A stretch of DNA of 64,000 nt from an uncultured delta proteobacterium (GCA_963840855.1 CAWJBB010000061.1:32001-96000); one strand, 5' to 3'; counted from the first letter of the stretch, positions 25,159-42,584 are shown. Made by a program: numbers and translations. Notes: generated by a model not told the origin, from the letters alone.

Positions 25159-26328
25159 TCAATCGTGACCTTGATCATGACCGCCGCATTCGGCAATCGC
25201 CTGCTCGAGTTCGTCTTTTACTTCCGGATCACCTTCAAGGTCCAACCGCTCGCGCAACGCCCGCGCCGCATGGTCGCCGCCAATCCGTCCCAGCGCCCAA
25301 GCCGCATGGCCGCGCACCAACGGCTCATCGTCAAGCAGCGCCAGCACCAGCGCGGGCACGGCCTCTGGAGAACCGCTGTTACCCAGCGCCACCGCGACGT
25401 TGCGCAGGAAACCGCGGCGCTTGGCGCGCCGCACCGGACTGCCGCGAAAGCGGCGGCGAAATTCCTCCTCGCTCAGCGACAGGAGCTCGGTCAGCTCGGG
25501 AGCATGGAGCCCGTCCCTGGGCTCGAAGGCCGCCTCGGTACTGGGCCGCGCCTTGACATTGTATGGGCAGATCTCCTGGCAGATATCGCAGCCAAAGACG
25601 TGATTGCCGATAAGCGGCCGGAGATGGCGTGGCATCCAGCCCTTGATCTCGATGGTCAAGTAGGAAATACAGCGGCGCGCGTCTAAAATATACGGCCCGA
25701 CGAATGCCTGTGTCGGGCATGCTTTTATGCACAGATCGCAGCTACCGCAGCGGTCGCGTATGGGCTTGTCATAAGCGAGAGAAACGCTCAGAAACAGCTC
25801 GCCGAGAAAGAACCACGAGCCTTTTTTCGGTGATATCAGGTTTGTGTTTTTGCCGATCCAGCCGAGCCCCGCCACGCCGGCAAAGTTCCGCTCCAACACC
25901 GGCCCCGAGTCGACAAAAGCCCGGCCCTCCACTGGCCCATCGTAGAAGCCTATGATTTTCGCGAGCAGGGAATCGAGCCTGCGCGTCATCAGCTCGTGAT
26001 AATCATCACCCCAGGCATATCGCGAAATCCAACCCCTGGTTCCCTTCGCCTGCCCTGGACGGTCATAGGCGGTATGATAATTCAAACCCAGGGAAACCAC
26101 TGACACCGCCCACGGAACAAGCTCCTCAGGCCGGCGGCGCAAATCGGCCGTGCGCGCCATATAACCCATCTCGCCGGCAAATCCCCGGCGCAACCAATCG
26201 GCAAATGAGCTTTCATGGGCCGGCGGGCGGACGGGGGAAATGCCTACAAGCTCGAAACCCAGACGCTGCGCTTCCTCTTTGATCCTGAGTGACAACGCAG
26301 CTATGGTATGAGCGGGCATAGAATTCAT
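25159..26328 (-). CDS. queG: tRNA epoxyqueuosine(34) reductase
   Basis: ISRYAWGDDYH, FVDSGPVLER, two ferredoxin-type Cys clusters (CGSCDLCIKACPT and GCDICQEICP) and a HEAT-repeat tail. Start approximate. Confidence 0.95.
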   Translation of the reverse strand: MNSMPAHTIAALSLRIKEEAQRLGFELVGISPVRPPAHESSFADWLRRGFAGEMGYMARTADLRRRPEELVPWAVSVVSLGLNYHTAYDRPGQAKGTRGWISRYAWGDDYHELMTRRLDSLLAKIIGFYDGPVEGRAFVDSGPVLERNFAGVAGLGWIGKNTNLISPKKGSWFFLGELFLSVSLAYDKPIRDRCGSCDLCIKACPTQAFVGPYILDARRCISYLTIEIKGWMPRHLRPLIGNHVFGCDICQEICPYNVKARPSTEAAFEPRDGLHAPELTELLSLSEEEFRRRFRGSPVRRAKRRGFLRNVAVALGNSGSPEAVPALVLALLDDEPLVRGHAAWALGRIGGDHAARALRERLDLEGDPEVKDELEQAIAECGGHDQGHD

Positions 26329-26516
26329 CGTGGCAGTACGGCTGGCGCAGCGGCAAAAGCAAAAATGCGGCGCAGCGCGAAACGATTCTAACTGTAGTCT
26401 TAGACGAGGTACAACAAAAAGCCGCGGGCGGTGTGCCCGGAACAATATTTTCGATGTTGAGTCTAAAGTCGTAACCCAAGACCCTAGACTCAAGAGCCGG
26501 GACAATTCCCGTATGT

Positions 26517-26963
26517 TCAGTGCAAGAAGGTATCGCTGTCGGGGCCAGGCTCTTCCTCATCAAGCAAAGCACGCCGCCCGGCAAAGCCATCCTCTATACG
26601 GTGCCAATGGCTCACCGCCTGTTCGCCCAATTGCCAGCAGAGGAACACGACCTCCGGCCCGAGCATGCAAGGAAAATCGACGAGCCCTTGTTCGACTCCC
26701 TTGCAGATGCAGCCATAACCGTGAATTTCATCGACCCCAAGCGTTACCTGGTGCAATAGGCGGGCGATGTCCGCATCCTCGCGCAGGCGATCCATCAAAT
26801 TCGGCGCCTCAGGATCGAGTTGCTGGTTCCGGATCACGATTTCGCTCTTGCTCTTGAGGCGCCTGATGTTTTCTAGAATATTTTCCAGCAACGGGCGCAG
26901 CGCCGGCAGCAAGGCGTTGGCTTCCTCGACGGTAAAGAGTTTGGAGAACTGAGAGCGATCCAT
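26517..26963 (-). CDS. DUF2203 family protein
   Basis: FTVEEANALLP, GLVDFP, LCWQLGE and WH...GFAGRR motifs. Confidence 0.88.
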   Translation of the reverse strand: MDRSQFSKLFTVEEANALLPALRPLLENILENIRRLKSKSEIVIRNQQLDPEAPNLMDRLREDADIARLLHQVTLGVDEIHGYGCICKGVEQGLVDFPCMLGPEVVFLCWQLGEQAVSHWHRIEDGFAGRRALLDEEEPGPDSDTFLH

Positions 26964-27025
26964 TGGACTACAATTTTACTTGATGAATGCCGGCTTTTCC
27001 TCGGCTTCGCGCTACTCGATCATTG

Positions 27026-28345
27026 CTATAAACCCATGCCCTTTTTCAGCTCACGCAGCAGCGCGATGTTGTCCGAATGGCCGGTCATGCGCGCGGTGAT
27101 CGCGCCGCGGATAGGCCTTCCCAACAAATAAAAATCGCCGATGATGTCGAGTATCTTGTGACGCGCCAGCTCGTCAGTGAAACGCAGCTCGGTATTTACG
27201 ATCTTCTCGTCATCGATGAGAATTAAATTGCTCAGCCGGCCGCCGGCGGCGAGCCCCATCTTTTCCAGTTGGGCGACGTCTTTAAGAAAACCAAAGGTCC
27301 GGGCTGGTGCAATCTCCTCTTTGAAAGTCTCAGGTCCGCGATGGGCATAAAAATACTCCTGCCGTCCCACCGGCTTTGGGTAACGCAGTTCGTAGCGCAC
27401 TGAAAAAACGTCCGCGGGCTCGATGATAATCGACTCGCCGTCCTCATTGCCCGCCCGGTAACGCCGGTCCACGACGATCTCGCTGCATTCTTCGTCCTGC
27501 TCTTCAATGCCCGCCTCGTCGACAAGGCGGCAAAACTCGATGGCGGAACCGTCGAGGATCGGGATTTCGCTTTGGACTTTTACCAGCAGGTTGGTAATTC
27601 CGTAGCTATGCAAGGTGGCAAGAAGATGTTCGATCGTGGCCACGCTGATACCCTTGTTACGCAGTGAGGTCGCGTACCCGGTAGAGACCACATTGTCGAG
27701 ATGCGCCCGCACCGTGGCGTCCGCCGCGATACCGGTAAACAGGATGCCGCTGTTCGGCGGCAGCGGATGAAGCACCAGGCCGGTTTTGATTCCCGAATGA
27801 AGACCTTGGCCGGAGGTCACGACGCTATGCCCTAGCGTTTTTTGTTTGAGCTGGCCCGCGGTGAGCGCCCACGCAGCTGCTGACGCAGGTTTTTTGGCGA
27901 CTCTTTTTTTGTTTCCTCCGGGCGCGCTTTGGACCGTGCCGCCTGGAACGTCGCCCAAGGCGCGCCGCACGGTTAACAGCAAGCCTTCCAGCGAAAGCGG
28001 CTTTTCGAGAAAATCGAAGGCGCCGAACTTTGTCGCCGTCACCGCCGTGTGAATATTGCCGTGGCCGGAGATCATGACAACGTTCAATTCCGGCTCCTTG
28101 CTCTTGATTTCCTTTAGTAAACCGATGCCATCCGCCTGGGGCATCCAGATGTCGAGTAGAACGAGTCCGGGTTTTTCCTCCTCGATAATATCGAGCACAC
28201 GGGTAACATCGGCGGTGTCCACGACGCGGTAACCTTCGTCGCTCAAGACTTCCCGAACCGATTCCCGGACTCTATCTTCATCGTCCACAACCAGGATCGT
28301 CTGCTCCGCGAGAGTTTCAATCACTCTTCCCCCCTTGCCGGACAA
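27026..28345 (-). CDS. lpxC: Fusion of an NtrX-type receiver domain and UDP-3-O-acyl-N-acetylglucosamine deacetylase
   Basis: Receiver: ILVVDDE, LLDIWMP, MISGHGNI and FDFLEKP. LpxC: QKTL...GQGLHSG, TIEHLLA, EIPILDGSA, IAPARTFGF, RHKILD.IGD and GH..N. One open frame. Confidence 0.92.
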   Translation of the reverse strand: MSGKGGRVIETLAEQTILVVDDEDRVRESVREVLSDEGYRVVDTADVTRVLDIIEEEKPGLVLLDIWMPQADGIGLLKEIKSKEPELNVVMISGHGNIHTAVTATKFGAFDFLEKPLSLEGLLLTVRRALGDVPGGTVQSAPGGNKKRVAKKPASAAAWALTAGQLKQKTLGHSVVTSGQGLHSGIKTGLVLHPLPPNSGILFTGIAADATVRAHLDNVVSTGYATSLRNKGISVATIEHLLATLHSYGITNLLVKVQSEIPILDGSAIEFCRLVDEAGIEEQDEECSEIVVDRRYRAGNEDGESIIIEPADVFSVRYELRYPKPVGRQEYFYAHRGPETFKEEIAPARTFGFLKDVAQLEKMGLAAGGRLSNLILIDDEKIVNTELRFTDELARHKILDIIGDFYLLGRPIRGAITARMTGHSDNIALLRELKKGMGL

Positions 28346-28349
28346 TACT

Positions 28350-30596
28350 CTATCCGATTGCCGGTAAAGCCGCTAGTTGGTGGCGTACCGGCAGCTCGAT
28401 TATAAACCTGGTTCCCTTCGGCTCGTTGGGCCGAACGCGGATATAACCGTGATGATCTTCCACGATGGCGCTAACGATGGAAAGCCCCAGGCCCGTACCG
28501 TCCCGCTTGGTTGAGAAGTATGGCTCGAAGATGCGCGACCGCACCTCCGGCGGCAAGCCCCTGCCATTGTCCGCCACTTCGAGACAAACTTTGGTTAAAG
28601 CATGCTCATAGCTCGTGGTGATCTCCACGTCTCCCCTGCCATCCATCGCCGTCACGGCATTGTCCAGTAGATTGATCAAGGCCCGCTTGATCTGGTTTCG
28701 GTCCAACTCCAAGGCCGGGATAACGCCCGGGTGAAATTCAAAACGGATGGTGCGATGCCCCTCCTGGAAGAGAAACAACGCCTCCCGCACGACTTCGTTG
28801 AGATCATTCACGGCCAGCTCCGCCGCCGGAAGTCGCGCGAACTGGGCGAATTCGTTCACAAGACGCTTGAGTTCTTCGACTTGCCGAATGATGGTCGTCG
28901 TGCATTTATCGAGAATCGCGCCGTCGCCTTCGAGCATCTTCGCATAACGTTTCCTCAGCCGTTCCGCCGACAGCTGGATCGGCGTGAGCGGGTTTTTGAT
29001 CTCATGGGCGATGCGCCGCGCCACTTCGCGCCATGCTTCCATGCGCTGCGCTTTCTGAATCTCGGTAATATCTTCCACGAACACCATCACGCCCAGACTG
29101 CGGCCGTCGTCGTCGCGCAAGGTGGCCGCGTTGGCCACCACCGTCAGCACCCGGTCCGGCAGGGATATCGACAATTCCTTTTCGACGCTCTCGCCGTCTT
29201 TGACGTTTTCCATGATTTCGCGCATCGGCTTGAGCTGTTCGGCGGCGAAAATCCGTTCCTGCGAATGGCCCAGGGCATCGGCACCGTTTATGCCGAAAAT
29301 TCTTTCCGCGGCTTTGTTCCAAGCGGTGATCTGGCCGCCGGCATCGACGGCGATGACCGCGGCATTGACGTTGGCAAGCAGGGTCTCCATATAGCGGCCG
29401 CGCCGTTCGATTTCGAATGTCATCTGCTTTAAATCCCGCGTCATGCCATTGAAAGAGTCCACGAGGGTGCCGATCTCGTCGTCGCCGCTGGCTTCAATCT
29501 GGTAGTCCCAATTGCCCTGCGCCACTGCATGGGTTCCCTCGGCCAACTGCTGGATCGGCACAGTGATACCTTTGGCCAGATAGAGGCCGAACCATGTCGC
29601 CGCAAATATGATAACGAGGGTAATAAGAAGCAACGTGAGAATGTAGCTGTTCTTGATCGGCGTTTTGAGAAACATGGAATGCTTATACTGTTCATAAGAG
29701 CGGGAGATCTGCGAGGCGCGCTTGGCGATGCTTTTGGGAACATAATAGTCCACCACCACAGCGCCTCGGATACGCTTGCCGTCGCCGTATACCGGCGCGC
29801 CGCCGCGAATCACATCACCCTCGCCGAACTCTTGCGTGCGCGTCACTTCCAAGCCGCGCAGCGCGCCGTTCAAGAACTCGGAGTCCGCCTTGATAGTAAC
29901 TCCCGTCGGCACGTCGTTGTTAAACGCCACCACGAGCAGTCGACGGTCCGGAGTGAACAACTCCACCGTGCCAAGGTTATATTCCCGCTGCTTGCGCGTG
30001 ACGAACTGTTTCAGCTCGGCGATACGCTGCGCGTCAAATAGTCTTTCCTCGGTGATCAGCCGGCTCAGCTGTTTGGCATAAAAAAGCGCGTTGTTGGCCG
30101 AATTTTGATAATAGGTCTGGCCTATTTCCAGCGAACCCTGGAGCGCGCTTTCGACCTGGACGTCGAACCAGCGTTCAAACGAGCGGGTCACAAAGCCGCC
30201 GGCGATCACGAACAAGATCAAGGTCGGCACCAACGACAGGCCGACAAAGGCCAGCACCAGCCGCACGCGCAGCCGGGAGCCAAGTATGTGGCGTTTGCGC
30301 TCGAAAACCAACTTGACTAGGTTTCGGACCACCAGAAAAACCATGAGCATAAGCAAAATGATGTTGATATTGATTAACAGGAAAAAGACGATGTTGTTGC
30401 CGAGCGATTGCTCGGTAGAAGCGTCGGGGAGGTTGACCTCGAAGTACGCGAACGCCGCCACCGTGAGGGCAGTGACAACAATCACCCACGCCTCGCGCCT
30501 GCGCCGTTTGGCCTCTTCCAGTTTGAGACTTTCCGCTATCGGTTTGGCCGGGTGAACCGCTTCCATGGGACTCTTTCCGGGAACATTATCGGACAA
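28350..30596 (-). CDS. NtrY-like membrane sensor histidine kinase (TM-HAMP-PAS-HisKA-HATPase)
   Basis: AQR.EAWREVARRIAHEIKNPLTPIQLSAERL, NLLDNA, DNG.G, FEPYFST and GTGLGL. Confidence 0.93.
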   Translation of the reverse strand: MSDNVPGKSPMEAVHPAKPIAESLKLEEAKRRRREAWVIVVTALTVAAFAYFEVNLPDASTEQSLGNNIVFFLLININIILLMLMVFLVVRNLVKLVFERKRHILGSRLRVRLVLAFVGLSLVPTLILFVIAGGFVTRSFERWFDVQVESALQGSLEIGQTYYQNSANNALFYAKQLSRLITEERLFDAQRIAELKQFVTRKQREYNLGTVELFTPDRRLLVVAFNNDVPTGVTIKADSEFLNGALRGLEVTRTQEFGEGDVIRGGAPVYGDGKRIRGAVVVDYYVPKSIAKRASQISRSYEQYKHSMFLKTPIKNSYILTLLLITLVIIFAATWFGLYLAKGITVPIQQLAEGTHAVAQGNWDYQIEASGDDEIGTLVDSFNGMTRDLKQMTFEIERRGRYMETLLANVNAAVIAVDAGGQITAWNKAAERIFGINGADALGHSQERIFAAEQLKPMREIMENVKDGESVEKELSISLPDRVLTVVANAATLRDDDGRSLGVMVFVEDITEIQKAQRMEAWREVARRIAHEIKNPLTPIQLSAERLRKRYAKMLEGDGAILDKCTTTIIRQVEELKRLVNEFAQFARLPAAELAVNDLNEVVREALFLFQEGHRTIRFEFHPGVIPALELDRNQIKRALINLLDNAVTAMDGRGDVEITTSYEHALTKVCLEVADNGRGLPPEVRSRIFEPYFSTKRDGTGLGLSIVSAIVEDHHGYIRVRPNEPKGTRFIIELPVRHQLAALPAIG

Positions 30597-30607
30597 TTCG
30601 AGAAATT

Positions 30608-30820
30608 CTATCTGCGAAAGAAATAAACGACAAGGGAAATCAACACGCTGACGAGCAGACAGGTGGCCAGCGGAAAATAAAAAGTAAACCGCTCGCGCTC
30701 AATCGTAATATCGCCGGGCAGGTGGCCGAGCCAGGGGATCTTGCCGCCGAGCAAGAAAATCACCCCAAAGAGGACTAACACGATGCCAATAAAGATAAGA
30801 GTTTTACCCAGACCCTCCAT
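30608..30820 (-). CDS. DUF2905 family small membrane protein
   Basis: LG.LPGDI.I.R..FTFYFPLATCLLVS. Confidence 0.88.
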   Translation of the reverse strand: MEGLGKTLIFIGIVLVLFGVIFLLGGKIPWLGHLPGDITIERERFTFYFPLATCLLVSVLISLVVYFFRR

Positions 30821-30978
30821 GATCGGTCCCTCCGAGTAAACCTATTATGGTCAAGCTGTTGCCGGGCTTCCCGCCTCATCTCCAGGCTCGTGGATCGCAG
30901 GAGCGCAAACGCCAATTTTTTCAATCAGCATCGAGCATTTTCCATTTTGCATTCCGCTATCACCACCCACCCTACTCT

Positions 30979-32004
30979 TCAGAACAGACTCGGCTGGTTT
31001 TTCGCTCCGATCGGTTTCACTCCACTCTGACTCCGGTCAAAATGTTCGTAAGCCAAAGCCGTGGCGACGCGCCCGCGGGGCGTGCGCTGCACGAACCCGG
31101 CCTGGATCAAAAACGGCTCGTAGACATCCTCGATGGTATCTTTCTCTTCCCCTATGGCGGCGGCGAGGGTTTCCACTCCGACCGGCCCACCGGCAAATTT
31201 ATCGATGAGCGTCAACAGCAACATCGTGTCCATTTTGTCCAGTCCCCGCCGATCGACCTCTAACATTCGCAACGCCTCGTCCGTGAGCGACTTTGTAATC
31301 GTTCCATTACCTTTGACCTGGGCGTAGTCGCGCACCCGCCGCAACAGCCGGTTCGCTATCCTTGGCGTGCCGCGCGAGCGGGTCGCGATCTCTGCAATGC
31401 CGGCACTATCCGCATTCACGCCGAGTATGGTCGCGGAGCGTTTTAAGATGCGCGAAAGCGCGCCGGTGTCGTAATAGTCCAAGCGATGGATGTGGCCGAA
31501 GCGGTCGCGCAGGGGGGAAGTCAATAGCCCGGAACGCGTGGTCGCGCCGATCAGCGTAAAGCGCTTGAGCTCCAACTTGATGGAACGAGCAGCCGGTCCC
31601 TGACCGATCATGATATCGATCTGATAATCCTCCATCGCGGGGTAGAGCACTTCTTCCACCACATGGTTCAAGCGGTGAATCTCATCGATAAAAAGGACAT
31701 CGCCTTCTTCGAGGTTGGTAAGCAGCGCCGCCAAGTCGCCCGGCCGTTCGACCACGGGCCCGGAAGTCGCCCTAATATTCACGCCCCTCTCACGGGCGAT
31801 GATGTAGGCCAATGAAGTCTTACCCAGGCCGGGGGGACCGTGAAAAAGAATATGATCGAGCACATCGCCCCGGCCCTGGGCCGCGACAATGGCCACTTTC
31901 AAGTTTTCCTTAATTGACTCTTGACCGACGTACTCATCGAAGCCGCGCGGCCGCAGATTGGCTTCGTAGTTTACTTCGTCGTCGTCCCTATGCCCATCGA
32001 TCAT
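30979..32004 (-). CDS. ruvB: Holliday junction branch migration helicase RuvB
   Basis: [30 protein letters not shown] and [16 protein letters not shown]. Confidence 0.98.
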
Positions 32005-40248: not shown

Positions 40249-42285
40249 CTACCATTTGCCGACGACGGCGATATCTCCCGGGACGCCGAAGTTCACCGCA
40301 CATACATCGATCCCGCAACCGTCCCATATTCCATTGCCGTTGTAGTCCAGGTACCACACGCTTGTGCTGGGGCGGAAGACACCAATTTTACTGGTACCCG
40401 ATCCGTTCCAGTCGCCCGTCACCGGCTGATCTCCAGCCCCGCCGAAGGACATGCAGCGCTCTTTGCTGCAACCGTTCCAGGATTTATTGCCGTTGTAATC
40501 CAGAAACCACTCGCCCGTGCTCGGCCGGAATAGTCCCAGCTGACTGACTCCAGCACCCTTCCAATCGCCGACCACTGGCAGGTCGCCGGTCATGTATACC
40601 GAGAGGTACGCGCATTGATCTTTTCGGCATCTAGTAAAACTCGCCATCGCTATTTTTGTCCAGGACCCAACTGCCAGTGCTTGGACGAAAAATCCCCACG
40701 CCATCATAACCCCCGGAAGTCCATTTCCCGACGACGGGCAGGTCTCCATTGACTCCGAATGGACCTAGACAAAGATCGACCGCGCACCCGTCCCAGGTTT
40801 CATTGGTGTTTTTGTCCATGAACCATTGCGCAGATTCAGCGCCAAATAATCCTAACTGGGTCACACCGGACGCGTCCCATTCACCGACAACCGGTACGGA
40901 ACCGGCAGCGCCAAAGGATTGAATACAGAGATCGATTTGACAGCTATCCCAGGCTGCCGTTGCCGTTTTGATCGAGGAACCACTCACCGGTGGACGGACG
41001 GTAAACGCCGATTCGGTCCGCAAAAGGCCACGGTGCTATTGAAAGTCGCCGTACAGGTCTATGTTCCCGGTGACCGTCACGGTGCTGGCGCATCCCGTGC
41101 CCGTCCAGCCGGCAAACGTCGAACCGCTGGCCGCCGTCGCCGTCAGCGCAACCTGTGTCCCGCTGGCAACACTTTCGCTGCAATCGCTGCCGCAATATGA
41201 TGCCGGTGGCCGTAACCGTGCCGCTCCCCGTCCCGGCCTTGGCCACCGTCAGTGTAAATGTGCTTGAGTTGAACGTCGCCGTACAGGTCAAGTTCCCGGT
41301 GACCGTCACGGTGCTGGCGCATCCCGTGCCCGTCCAGCCGGCAAACGTCGAACCGCTGGCCGCCGTCGCCGTCAGCGCAACCTGTGTCCCGCTGGCAACA
41401 CTTTCGCTGCAATCGCTGCCGCAATTGATGCCGGTGGCCGTAACCGTGCCGCTCCCCGTCCCGGCCTTGGCCACCGTCAGTGTAAATGTGCTTGAGTTGA
41501 ACGTCGCCGTACAGGTCAAGTTCCCGGTGACCGTCACGGTGCTGGCGCATCCCGTGCCCGTCCAGCCGGCAAACGTCGAACCGCTGGCCGCCGTCGCCGT
41601 CAGCGCAACCTGTGTCCCGCTGGCAACACTTTCGCTGCAATCGCTGCCGCAATTGATGCCGGTGGCCGTAACCGTGCCGCTCCCCGTCCCGGCCTTGGCC
41701 ACCGTCAGTGTAAATGTGCTTAAGTTGAACGTCGCCGTACAGGTCAAGTTCCCGGTGACCGTCACGGTGCTGGCGCATCCCGTGCCCGTCCAGCCGGCAA
41801 ACGTCGAACCGCTGGCCGCCGTCGCCGTCAGCGCAACCTGTGTCCCGCTGGCAACACTTTCGCTGCAATCGCTGCCGCAATATGATGCCGGTGGCCGTAA
41901 CCGTGCCGCTCCCCGTCCCGGCCTTGCTTACCGTCAACAGGTAGATAGACGGGGTGACCGACGCAGTTGTTGCGCACCCTTCATTGCTATATCCAGAAGA
42001 ACCTGTGGCATTAAATGCATTCACCCGATAACAGAAGGTCGTTGCGGCCGACAAATTACTATCGACGTGCGATCCCGCGTTTGCGGGCAGGCTGATAATC
42101 GGCACATAGGTCCCCGCAGTACCGGTCTTCCTCTCTACGCGAAAACCATCTTCGTTGTTCGAATTATCCGACCAACTCAGAGTCAGCTGCGCGGCGGAAA
42201 GTTCCGTGTGCGCAATGACCGCTGCAAAGACGGTGCAGAGAATAGCGAGAGTAACTAGCTTGAGAAATGATGCGATTCGATACAT
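40249..42285 (-). CDS. Secreted/surface protein: FN3-like domain, four InlB-B-like repeats and FG-GAP-like repeats, split by several indels
   Basis: Signal peptide from ATG 42285 (GGAGG SD) and LSWSDNSNNEDGFRVER. Repeated LTVAKAGTGSGTV...CGSDCSE...FAGWTG.GC...CTATF. About five GxFRPSTG.W.LD.NG...PVVGDW units, pieced together from ORFs 41143..42309, 40944..41765, 40631..41023 and 40249..40749. Confidence 0.85.
41045..41935. repeat. Four near-identical 228-nt (76-codon) tandem repeats
   Basis: Units start at 41045, 41275, 41503 and 41731 (gtcgccgtacaggtc). Confidence 0.95.
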
Positions 42286-42354
42286 TCTGCTGACCTCCGA
42301 GGAACGCAAGCGAGAACCGACACGCGCACGATCCTTGGAAGGTCAGTGCAACCT

Positions 42355-42568: not shown

Positions 42569-42584
42569 AGCAACACCGGTGCCA
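42569..42584 (-). promoter_or_regulatory. Sigma-54 -24/-12 promoter
   Basis: Minus strand TGGCAC-CGGTG-TTGCT has exact consensus spacing and points toward the riboswitch. Confidence 0.75.

Follow-up and report, generated by a model that had tools for sequence, protein, structure and literature searches.

LpxC carries out the committed step of outer-membrane lipid A synthesis, and is both a control point for lipopolysaccharide (LPS) and a long-standing antibiotic target. In Escherichia coli its control by FtsH and LapB (YciM) is proteolytic, and needs LapB together with a C-terminal degron. Response regulators with enzymatic outputs include CheB, in which the unphosphorylated receiver blocks the active site, as well as PleD/WspR and RpfG. 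Several two-component systems have been linked to lpxC. In Desulfovibrio vulgaris the regulator DVU2934, whose kinase is DVU2931, binds only upstream of lpxC, its single target, and in Syntrophobacter fumaroxidans lpxC lies directly upstream of the orthologous operon (PMC3333781, 2011). In the D. alaskensis kinase mutant Dde_3000 only lpxC was strongly up-regulated, via the sigma-54 activator Dde_3003 (PMC4045070). Loss of NtrYX in Rhodobacter sphaeroides raised lpxC mRNA 8.8-fold and increased LPS, the effect of NtrYX on lpxC being indirect (PMC7240162), and in the Bordetella PlrS/PlrR system plrP (DUF4390) precedes the kinase gene (PMC13001219). A 2025 Journal of Biological Chemistry review of lipid A regulation presents LpxC control, in its section 10, as proteolysis plus indirect transcriptional effects only; it credits NtrYX with no more than an indirect effect on transcription, and the words 'fusion', 'fused' and 'response regulator' are absent from it (PMC12444477). 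Here we describe a locus at 27026-30596 of a 64,000-nucleotide (nt) stretch of DNA from an uncultured delta proteobacterium, a soil bacterium (GCA_963840855.1, CAWJBB010000061.1:32001-96000; hereafter the window), where the gene for an NtrY-type membrane kinase is followed by a gene whose product joins an NtrX-like receiver (REC) to a complete LpxC.

A receiver-LpxC fusion beside an NtrY-type kinase

Both genes lie on the minus strand, as do the features given below within them. The kinase open reading frame (ORF; 28350-30596, 748 amino acids (aa) as the longest ORF, from ORF calling and Pfam) encodes NtrY_N, HAMP, PAS, HisKA (H-box HEIKNPL) and HATPase_c domains; the NtrY_N match (PF19312) scored 37.3 bits against a cut-off of 23.2 and is the only one in this genome. 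As read from the sequence, about 180 residues separate its membrane segments 3 and 4, which would leave room for a periplasmic sensor. The adjoining gene (27026-28345, stop codon 27026-27028; 439 aa when read from TTG 28345) matched Response_reg (PF00072) at residues 17-126 with 103 bits and LpxC (PF03331) at residues 168-434 with 276 bits, the latter over model positions 1-267 of 268. The NCBIfam lpxC model TIGR00325 matched over positions 1-271 of its 297 and scored 236.1 bits, above its cut-off of 187.25. These matches confirm the fusion next to an NtrY-type kinase that a first-pass annotation of the window had reported.

Every receiver and LpxC motif named in that annotation was found. In the receiver domain (residues 14-130; 27956-28306), VVDDE from residue 19 supplies the acidic pair D21/D22, LLDIW from 63 the phospho-acceptor D65 (codon 28151-28153), MISGHG from 91 the S93, and FLEKP from 112 both F112 and K115. 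The LpxC domain (residues 166-439; 27029-27850) carries IEHLL from 238 (E239, H240), RHKILD from 395 (H396, K397, D400), Asp404 and TGHSD from 421 (H423); E239 and H423 are the catalytic residues and H240, H396 and D400 the zinc ligands. This part aligned over its whole length with Pseudomonas aeruginosa LpxC (6moo, E 4e-51), and E239, H240, H396, D400 and H423 matched conserved residues of that protein. Its fold resembled solved LpxCs in Foldseek comparisons, with target-normalised template modelling (TM) scores of 0.85-0.95 and root-mean-square deviations of 1.4-2.3 Å over about 275 columns. The alignment also indicated that the domain terminates where Aquifex LpxC does, without the C-terminal tail of the E. 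coli/Pseudomonas type. No solved structure spanning both REC and LpxC was returned by the fold search, the top query-normalised TM score being 0.60, for LpxC only.

The closest solved relatives of the receiver were the receiver of a Fis-family regulator (4d6x) and Brucella NtrX (5m7n), and its best receiver-type NCBIfam match was NtrX (NF051870; 130.7 bits, below the cut-off of 600, with only positions 3-119 of the 452 in the model covered), in keeping with the NtrX-type assignment made earlier. Since Pfam found neither an AAA+ nor an HTH domain in the fusion, the protein, as its domains are read, is a derivative of an NtrX-type regulator and not an NtrX member, and it belongs to the LpxC and receiver families. 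Deacetylase activity is presumed, because the genome contains lpxA and lpxB but no other LpxC match.

The description of a 439-aa ORF starting 4 nt after the kinase stands for the longest ORF, which begins 4 nt beyond the kinase stop (TAG 28350-28352), and probably not for the gene. GTG 28324 is more likely to be the real start than TTG 28345, because it is preceded by AAGGGGGGAAGA, a purine-rich ribosome site, and because the closest fusion homologues are 431-432 aa long, matching the 432 aa read from this codon; the gap after the kinase would then be about 25 nt. This small correction leaves the fusion itself untouched. We found no terminator-like site between the kinase and fusion genes.

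That the single frame results from an assembly or frameshift artefact, or yields two proteins through an internal start, has a negligible probability in our judgement, and the artefact has already been refuted. The linker (residues 131-165; 27851-27955), Gly/Ala/Lys-rich and about 35 aa long as first described, is crossed without insertion or deletion by contigs of four independent assemblies, each from a different study (X1 26900-30447, X2 27729-27982, X4 27728-28020 and X15 27781-28159). As for relatives, both domains were present in all 120 homologues listed (of 7809 scored; 71-97% identity, 428-448 aa), and the same REC-LpxC frame was found in 60 of 80 species-level loci. For an internal start one can point to TTG122, GTG126 and TTG130, which lie in frame in receiver helix 5 just ahead of the linker, with GGAAGG 13 nt before GTG126. 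However, GGAAGG encodes Leu-Glu-Gly, replaced by Leu-Asp-Gly in many relatives, and is thus not a conserved ribosome site. The linker holds no in-frame ATG, GTG or TTG, which bears out the earlier remark that there is no Met at the LpxC boundary; on its other side the nearest in-frame start is GTG176, inside the LpxC fold.

Two further observations concern these assemblies. A joint in X1 (28078 to 28969, with 912 foreign letters between) belongs to a separate record with short sides, and was rejected as a variant of the fusion gene. X15 is an RNA library with contigs over 27530-28159 and over parts of the kinase, other parts of the kinase region being without cover; since such a library may contain DNA, it is not proof of transcription.

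The genome (7.1 Mb, 94% complete, 8% contamination) contains the fusion as its only LpxC match in a profile search, with no second copy found. It also contains lpxB and two lpxA matches above cut-off, one adjoining lpxB (C21:118108-118869, 347 bits) and another at C17:30771-31526 (315 bits), which may be a paralogue or come from another organism, given the contamination. Neither LapB (best 33 bits against 363) nor a separate NtrX-grade regulator (best 415 bits against 600) was found above cut-off. Across 121 genomes sampled from the window's class, LpxC was matched in 119 and exactly once in 117 of these. In 115 of the 119 (114 of 118 without the unpublished genome G282) the match was intact and its open frame, at 411-1423 aa, exceeded the length of a plain LpxC. 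The four exceptions (G232, G286, G240 and G302) have split or cut LpxC matches, and the two genomes that lack a match have completeness values of 94% and 99%. By these counts the fusion is the housekeeping LpxC, as the first-pass annotation had supposed in calling it the main lpxC.

The wider fusion family and its unfused relatives

Eighty species-level loci were fetched with the window protein, and the architecture of each was taken from the stop-to-stop frame holding LpxC. Besides the 60 REC-LpxC loci, 12 encoded REC-AAA+-lid-HTH-LpxC and 3, labelled Nitrospinota, REC-AAA+-lid-LpxC; in 2 the frame was interrupted or unclear (L076, L078) and in 3 the contig ended within it. The same architectures came back from a search of 1.84 billion representatives, together with REC-HTH-LpxC (P0123, P0135). 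Judged by domain content, the window protein is a shortened form of an NtrX/NtrC-type regulator::LpxC family with the architecture REC-AAA+-HTH-LpxC. The first-pass interpretation was therefore right in seeing a true fusion, the sole lpxC, beside an NtrY-type kinase, and missed this wider family and its origin. The synteny with ntrY that it had proposed to check extends to relatives: at 67 of the 80 loci the kinase gene stands immediately before the fusion and shares its strand, at 2 it is about 1 kb off, and 6 loci are cut. All named members come from uncultured metagenome-assembled genomes (MAGs) and are annotated 'NtrX' or 'LpxC'. We found no published description of a receiver-LpxC or NtrX-LpxC fusion in a search that had most subscription journals outside its reach; domain-architecture databases surely list the REC-LpxC architecture.

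In a sample of 201 genomes of the window's phylum, 27 had a full-length REC-LpxC match, and in 14 the frame holding LpxC measured 690-837 aa. In another 7 this frame measured 450-497 aa, and the 3 examined were REC-LpxC with a longer linker; the remaining genomes carried an ordinary LpxC of 35-44% identity. In the phylum of L077, labelled Nitrospinota, LpxC was found in 29 of 33 genomes, with an intact match in a frame of 538-962 aa in 28 and a single match in 27, which makes a regulator::LpxC fusion, as far as these frames tell, the standard LpxC of a second phylum. The fusion was the only LpxC in all five long-form genomes checked.

Several single cases were also recorded. L066, from a MAG and one of the 12 REC-AAA+-lid-HTH-LpxC loci, has an in-frame stop within the receiver of its otherwise complete gene (L066:4930-4932); this is either an error of sequencing or a sign that the receiver part was recently inactivated. 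Beside the long fusion of G340 lies a second LpxC (C31:90834-91406) in three frames with an internal TGA, which looks like a decaying copy. In G053 (L089/L090) the 4.5 kb downstream of an NtrY-type kinase hold no regulator, and REC-LpxC sits on another contig without a kinase, the two probably being partners in trans. Both G034 (C11, C33) and G199 (C52, C232) carry an orphan REC-LpxC plus a stand-alone lpxC beside an NtrY_N kinase; these may be intermediates, or have two LpxC forms under one kinase.

The same kinase type accompanies unfused lpxC genes. Of the 201 phylum genomes, 155 had an NtrY_N kinase, each a single one, and the places of kinase and LpxC were collated by eye for the roughly 117 genomes with both listed. 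A stand-alone lpxC lay immediately upstream of the kinase, on the same strand and within 3.7 kb, in 30 of them (G180, G082, G007, G002, G048, G072, G043, G036, G033, G109, G169, G116, G194, G037, G173, G196, G075, G142, G078, G034, G149, G187, G157, G199, G191, G145, G140, G171, G165 and G059), and the fusion lay immediately downstream of the kinase in 13; in the rest the two were on different contigs or far apart. Three unfused loci, read fully, consist of lpxC, DUF4390 (in two of the three), an NtrY-type kinase and a regulator with REC, canonical sigma-54 AAA+ and HTH_8 domains, whose AAA+ part matched PF00158 with 234-253 bits; the Walker B Asp-Glu is intact there and a G(A/S)FTGA loop is present. 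When the kinases of the unfused loci were compared with the window's genome, the window kinase was the best match (514-538 bits against 107-143 for the next), which by sequence makes it their orthologue. With their receivers as queries the fusion receiver also came first, ahead by only a little (119, 107 and 130 bits against 96, 106 and 117).

The tree of 107 LpxC domains placed all fusion architectures on one side of a branch with a support of 95 in the Shimodaira-Hasegawa-like approximate likelihood-ratio test (SH-aLRT; 50 rows) and 57 stand-alone LpxCs on the opposite side, this being a quick tree with 41 of its 104 inner branches lacking support. Long and short forms mix within the fusion side: the REC-HTH-LpxC protein P0135 is sister to the long P0143, and the short P0138 is nested among long forms. 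In 29 long fusions the AAA+ part keeps the Walker A Lys in 27, has the GAFTGA loop in none and the Walker B Glu in none, and scores only 39-65 bits in Pfam; it looks like a decayed module. We infer that the AAA+/HTH part was deleted repeatedly while REC was kept, because exact re-insertion of AAA+-HTH between REC and LpxC is implausible; the tree alone cannot separate gain from loss.

Taken with the unfused modules, this pattern suggests that the fusion derives from a two-component system already dedicated to lpxC. A rearrangement would be needed, since lpxC precedes the kinase in the unfused modules but follows the regulator in the fusions; tandem duplication of the module is, speculatively, one example. 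The fullest version of this history, which seems to us evenly poised between right and wrong, is that a sigma-54 regulator with lpxC as its only target was fused to the product of that target, that its ATPase and DNA-binding parts decayed and were lost several times, and that the kinase now toggles the enzyme within seconds of an envelope signal. If this is true, a transcription factor 'captured' its only target, and no earlier two-component system would have had an essential enzyme of envelope biosynthesis for its output. The series from separate regulator to full fusion, degenerate-ATPase fusion, REC-HTH-LpxC and finally REC-LpxC would trace an unusually clear path from transcriptional to post-translational control of one gene.

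Constraint on the receiver and the proposed control of LpxC

The receiver is under purifying selection no weaker than that on LpxC. Across 37 diverse fusion representatives the acceptor Asp was kept in 35, Lys115 in 36 and Ser/Thr93 in all; in the LpxC part E239, H240, H396, K397, D400, D404 and H423 were kept in 37 of 37 and T350 in 36. Among 74 short-form sequences D22, S93 and K115 were invariant, and D21 and D65 at least 90% conserved. The ratio of nonsynonymous to synonymous substitution rates (dN/dS) was computed for 10 pairs, several with saturated dS; in the least saturated, the window gene against L003, L004 and L040, it was 0.04-0.06 for REC, 0.05-0.14 for LpxC and 0.43-0.51 for the linker. 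Pair L024 was left out, its dN of more than 2 at 83% amino-acid identity being a codon-register error. REC was more conserved than LpxC in every usable pair, and such values exclude a vestigial receiver. The conserved Asp, Lys and Ser/Thr, together with a REC dN/dS of about 0.05, argue that phosphorylation chemistry itself is under selection.

The linker behaves otherwise. AlphaFold2 predicted residues 134-163 as disordered, with a predicted local distance difference test (pLDDT) below 50; length and sequence vary among relatives, and the alignment contained no conserved motif, only a basic character within close relatives. By these features the linker is a variable tether and not a conserved element, which argues against a rigid allosteric connector and favours CheB-like docking and release, or phospho-dependent dimerisation or stability. 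Despite this disorder the model of the whole window protein reached a mean pLDDT of 86 and a predicted TM score (pTM) of 0.84, which is about the ceiling for two docked domains, packing being judged here by pTM alone. A complex prediction for REC (13-133) and LpxC (164-439), run without controls, scored 0.01 against a mark of 0.32, which counts neither for nor against packing; docking of REC on LpxC is a hypothesis. Residues 189, 248, 256, 272 and 376 are each conserved in at least 85% of 44 fusion-clade LpxCs and at most 25% of 57 stand-alone ones, position 256 being Lys in the fusion clade and Glu/Asp in the stand-alone proteins; these five are candidate contact or regulatory residues.

We consider it probable, though by no means assured, that LpxC is here the output of a two-component system and is directly controlled by phosphorylation. 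The kinase would sense an envelope or periplasmic signal and phosphorylate Asp65 of a receiver tethered flexibly to the cell's only LpxC, and phosphorylation would alter UDP-3-O-acyl-GlcNAc deacetylation and so set the flux into lipid A. The architecture and its conservation, the status as sole LpxC, the intact catalytic and phospho-acceptor residues and the descent from a regulator::LpxC fusion are shown by the data above, and phosphotransfer from this kinase, an effect on LpxC and the direction of that effect are inferred. In the version we prefer, which is CheB-like, the unphosphorylated receiver would pack on the catalytic domain and limit LpxC until phosphorylation releases it; in variants of it, phosphorylation would control stability or dimerisation. 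That phosphorylation activates LpxC is a guess, made because of the continuity with the sigma-54 activators that turn lpxC on.

Other explanations would keep parts of this scheme. Phosphorylation could set the amount of LpxC, with the receiver serving as a phospho-dependent degron or adaptor site for FtsH, Lon or ClpXP in place of the LapB/FtsH route. LpxC control in studied bacteria acts mainly through protein level (PMC12444477, PMC3333781), no LapB above cut-off was found in the genome, and the disordered, basic linker could be an entry site for a protease, but the linker lacks a conserved degron motif, and we think this explanation unlikely. Information might also flow in reverse, the LpxC domain reporting substrate or product occupancy to the receiver and to the kinase/phosphatase as a metabolic sensor or phosphate sink. 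The long forms, in which the retained HTH could tie gene regulation to the state of the LpxC domain, would suit such a role, as would the two genomes with an orphan REC-LpxC plus a stand-alone lpxC beside the kinase. In the window's class, however, there is no LpxC other than the fusion, which lacks a DNA-binding part, so that an enzymatic role is obligatory, and there is no second regulator beside the kinase; reverse flow is in our view very unlikely. Finally, the receiver may only tether LpxC to the membrane kinase for localisation, or secure co-expression, with no phospho-switch at all. A flexible linker would allow this, and stoichiometry by itself can favour the fusion of neighbouring genes in an operon; the conservation of the acceptor Asp, Lys and Ser/Thr and the low REC dN/dS speak against it, as do orphan fusions far from any kinase gene, and we give it little credence.

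Direct control of LpxC by phosphorylation remains the best reading, and several observations weigh against it. The acceptor Asp is replaced by Asn or Ser in 2 of the 37 representatives, and 4 apparently receiver-less LpxCs fall within the fusion clade, where they may be gene-call fragments or true losses of REC. No kinase lies in the flank at 5 of the 80 fusion loci (L047-L050, L053), and in 17 short-form genomes, collated by eye, the NtrY_N match lies elsewhere. The compact AlphaFold2 model is not robust, the distant member P0192 (35% identical) having a pTM of only 0.71, and the disordered, variable linker seems to offer no obvious rigid route for allostery. The long forms retain the HTH, so that the long-form protein may still act on DNA.

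Gene neighbourhood and comparison with known systems

Downstream of the fusion lie, on the same strand, a DUF2203 gene (26517-26963; a profile match with no NCBIfam match) and queG, for epoxyqueuosine reductase (25159-26505). In most loci of about 67% identity or more a DUF2203 match comes after the fusion; it was not found at the long-form loci examined, L066 and L077 having other genes there. Upstream of the kinase is ruvB (30979-32004, minus strand). A weak sigma-70-like match (TTGTCG-17-TAGAAT, 9/12; 30605-30633, minus strand) lies just upstream of the kinase ORF, one of 5 consensus-only matches found against 2.8 ± 1.9 in shuffles. No sigma-54 promoter of the kind reported for Desulfovibrio lpxC was matched upstream of the kinase (30597-30978), and the 23 such matches window-wide show no excess over the 29 ± 5 expected by chance. 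The sole zero-mismatch sigma-54 consensus in the window (TGGCAC-N5-TTGCT; 42569-42584, minus strand) lies upstream of a minus-strand tandem-repeat ORF. The repeat, at 41039-41926, has a 228-nt unit in 3.9 copies with 99% matches within the ORFs 41143-42309 (minus strand) and 41155-42258 (plus strand), and probably encodes a repeat-domain protein.

Among described systems, that of Desulfovibrio is a kinase-regulator pair with lpxC as its only detected target (PMC3333781, PMC4045070). The lpxC-first order given for S. fumaroxidans in the 2011 paper is the order seen in about 30 genomes of the window's phylum, with three loci verified. Orthology of the Desulfovibrio proteins to those described here is suggested from gene order alone. 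There the control is transcriptional, with a sigma-54 activator separate from LpxC, whereas in the window the regulator's output is gone and the receiver is fused to the enzyme. With NtrY/NtrX the window shares the NtrY_N, HAMP, PAS and HisKA domains of the kinase and the NtrX-like receiver; NtrX and PlrR, however, are DNA-binding proteins with many targets, and the window protein has neither AAA+ nor HTH. A DUF4390 gene stands ahead of that for the kinase at L077, L082 and L084, an arrangement shared with plrP in Bordetella (PMC13001219); the window has no DUF4390 gene, the 380-nt gap between kinase and ruvB being too small for one.

Compared with E. coli, where control is by proteolysis, no LapB match in the window's genome passed the cut-off, and the LpxC domain of the fusion stops where the short Aquifex form does. 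In LpxC-FabZ (NCBIfam NF009667), the other known natural LpxC fusion, the partner is a metabolic enzyme at the C terminus, whereas here it is a signalling domain at the N terminus; the NF009667 model gave the window's LpxC part 206 bits, under its cut-off of 465. A receiver on the sole LpxC of entire lineages makes a simple system that could be reconstituted from two proteins, and could show whether envelope signals act directly on LpxC. CheB-type regulators likewise consist of a receiver, a flexible linker and a catalytic domain; their outputs are signalling enzymes, whereas the output in the window is an essential enzyme of biosynthesis, the zinc amidase of the lipid A pathway.

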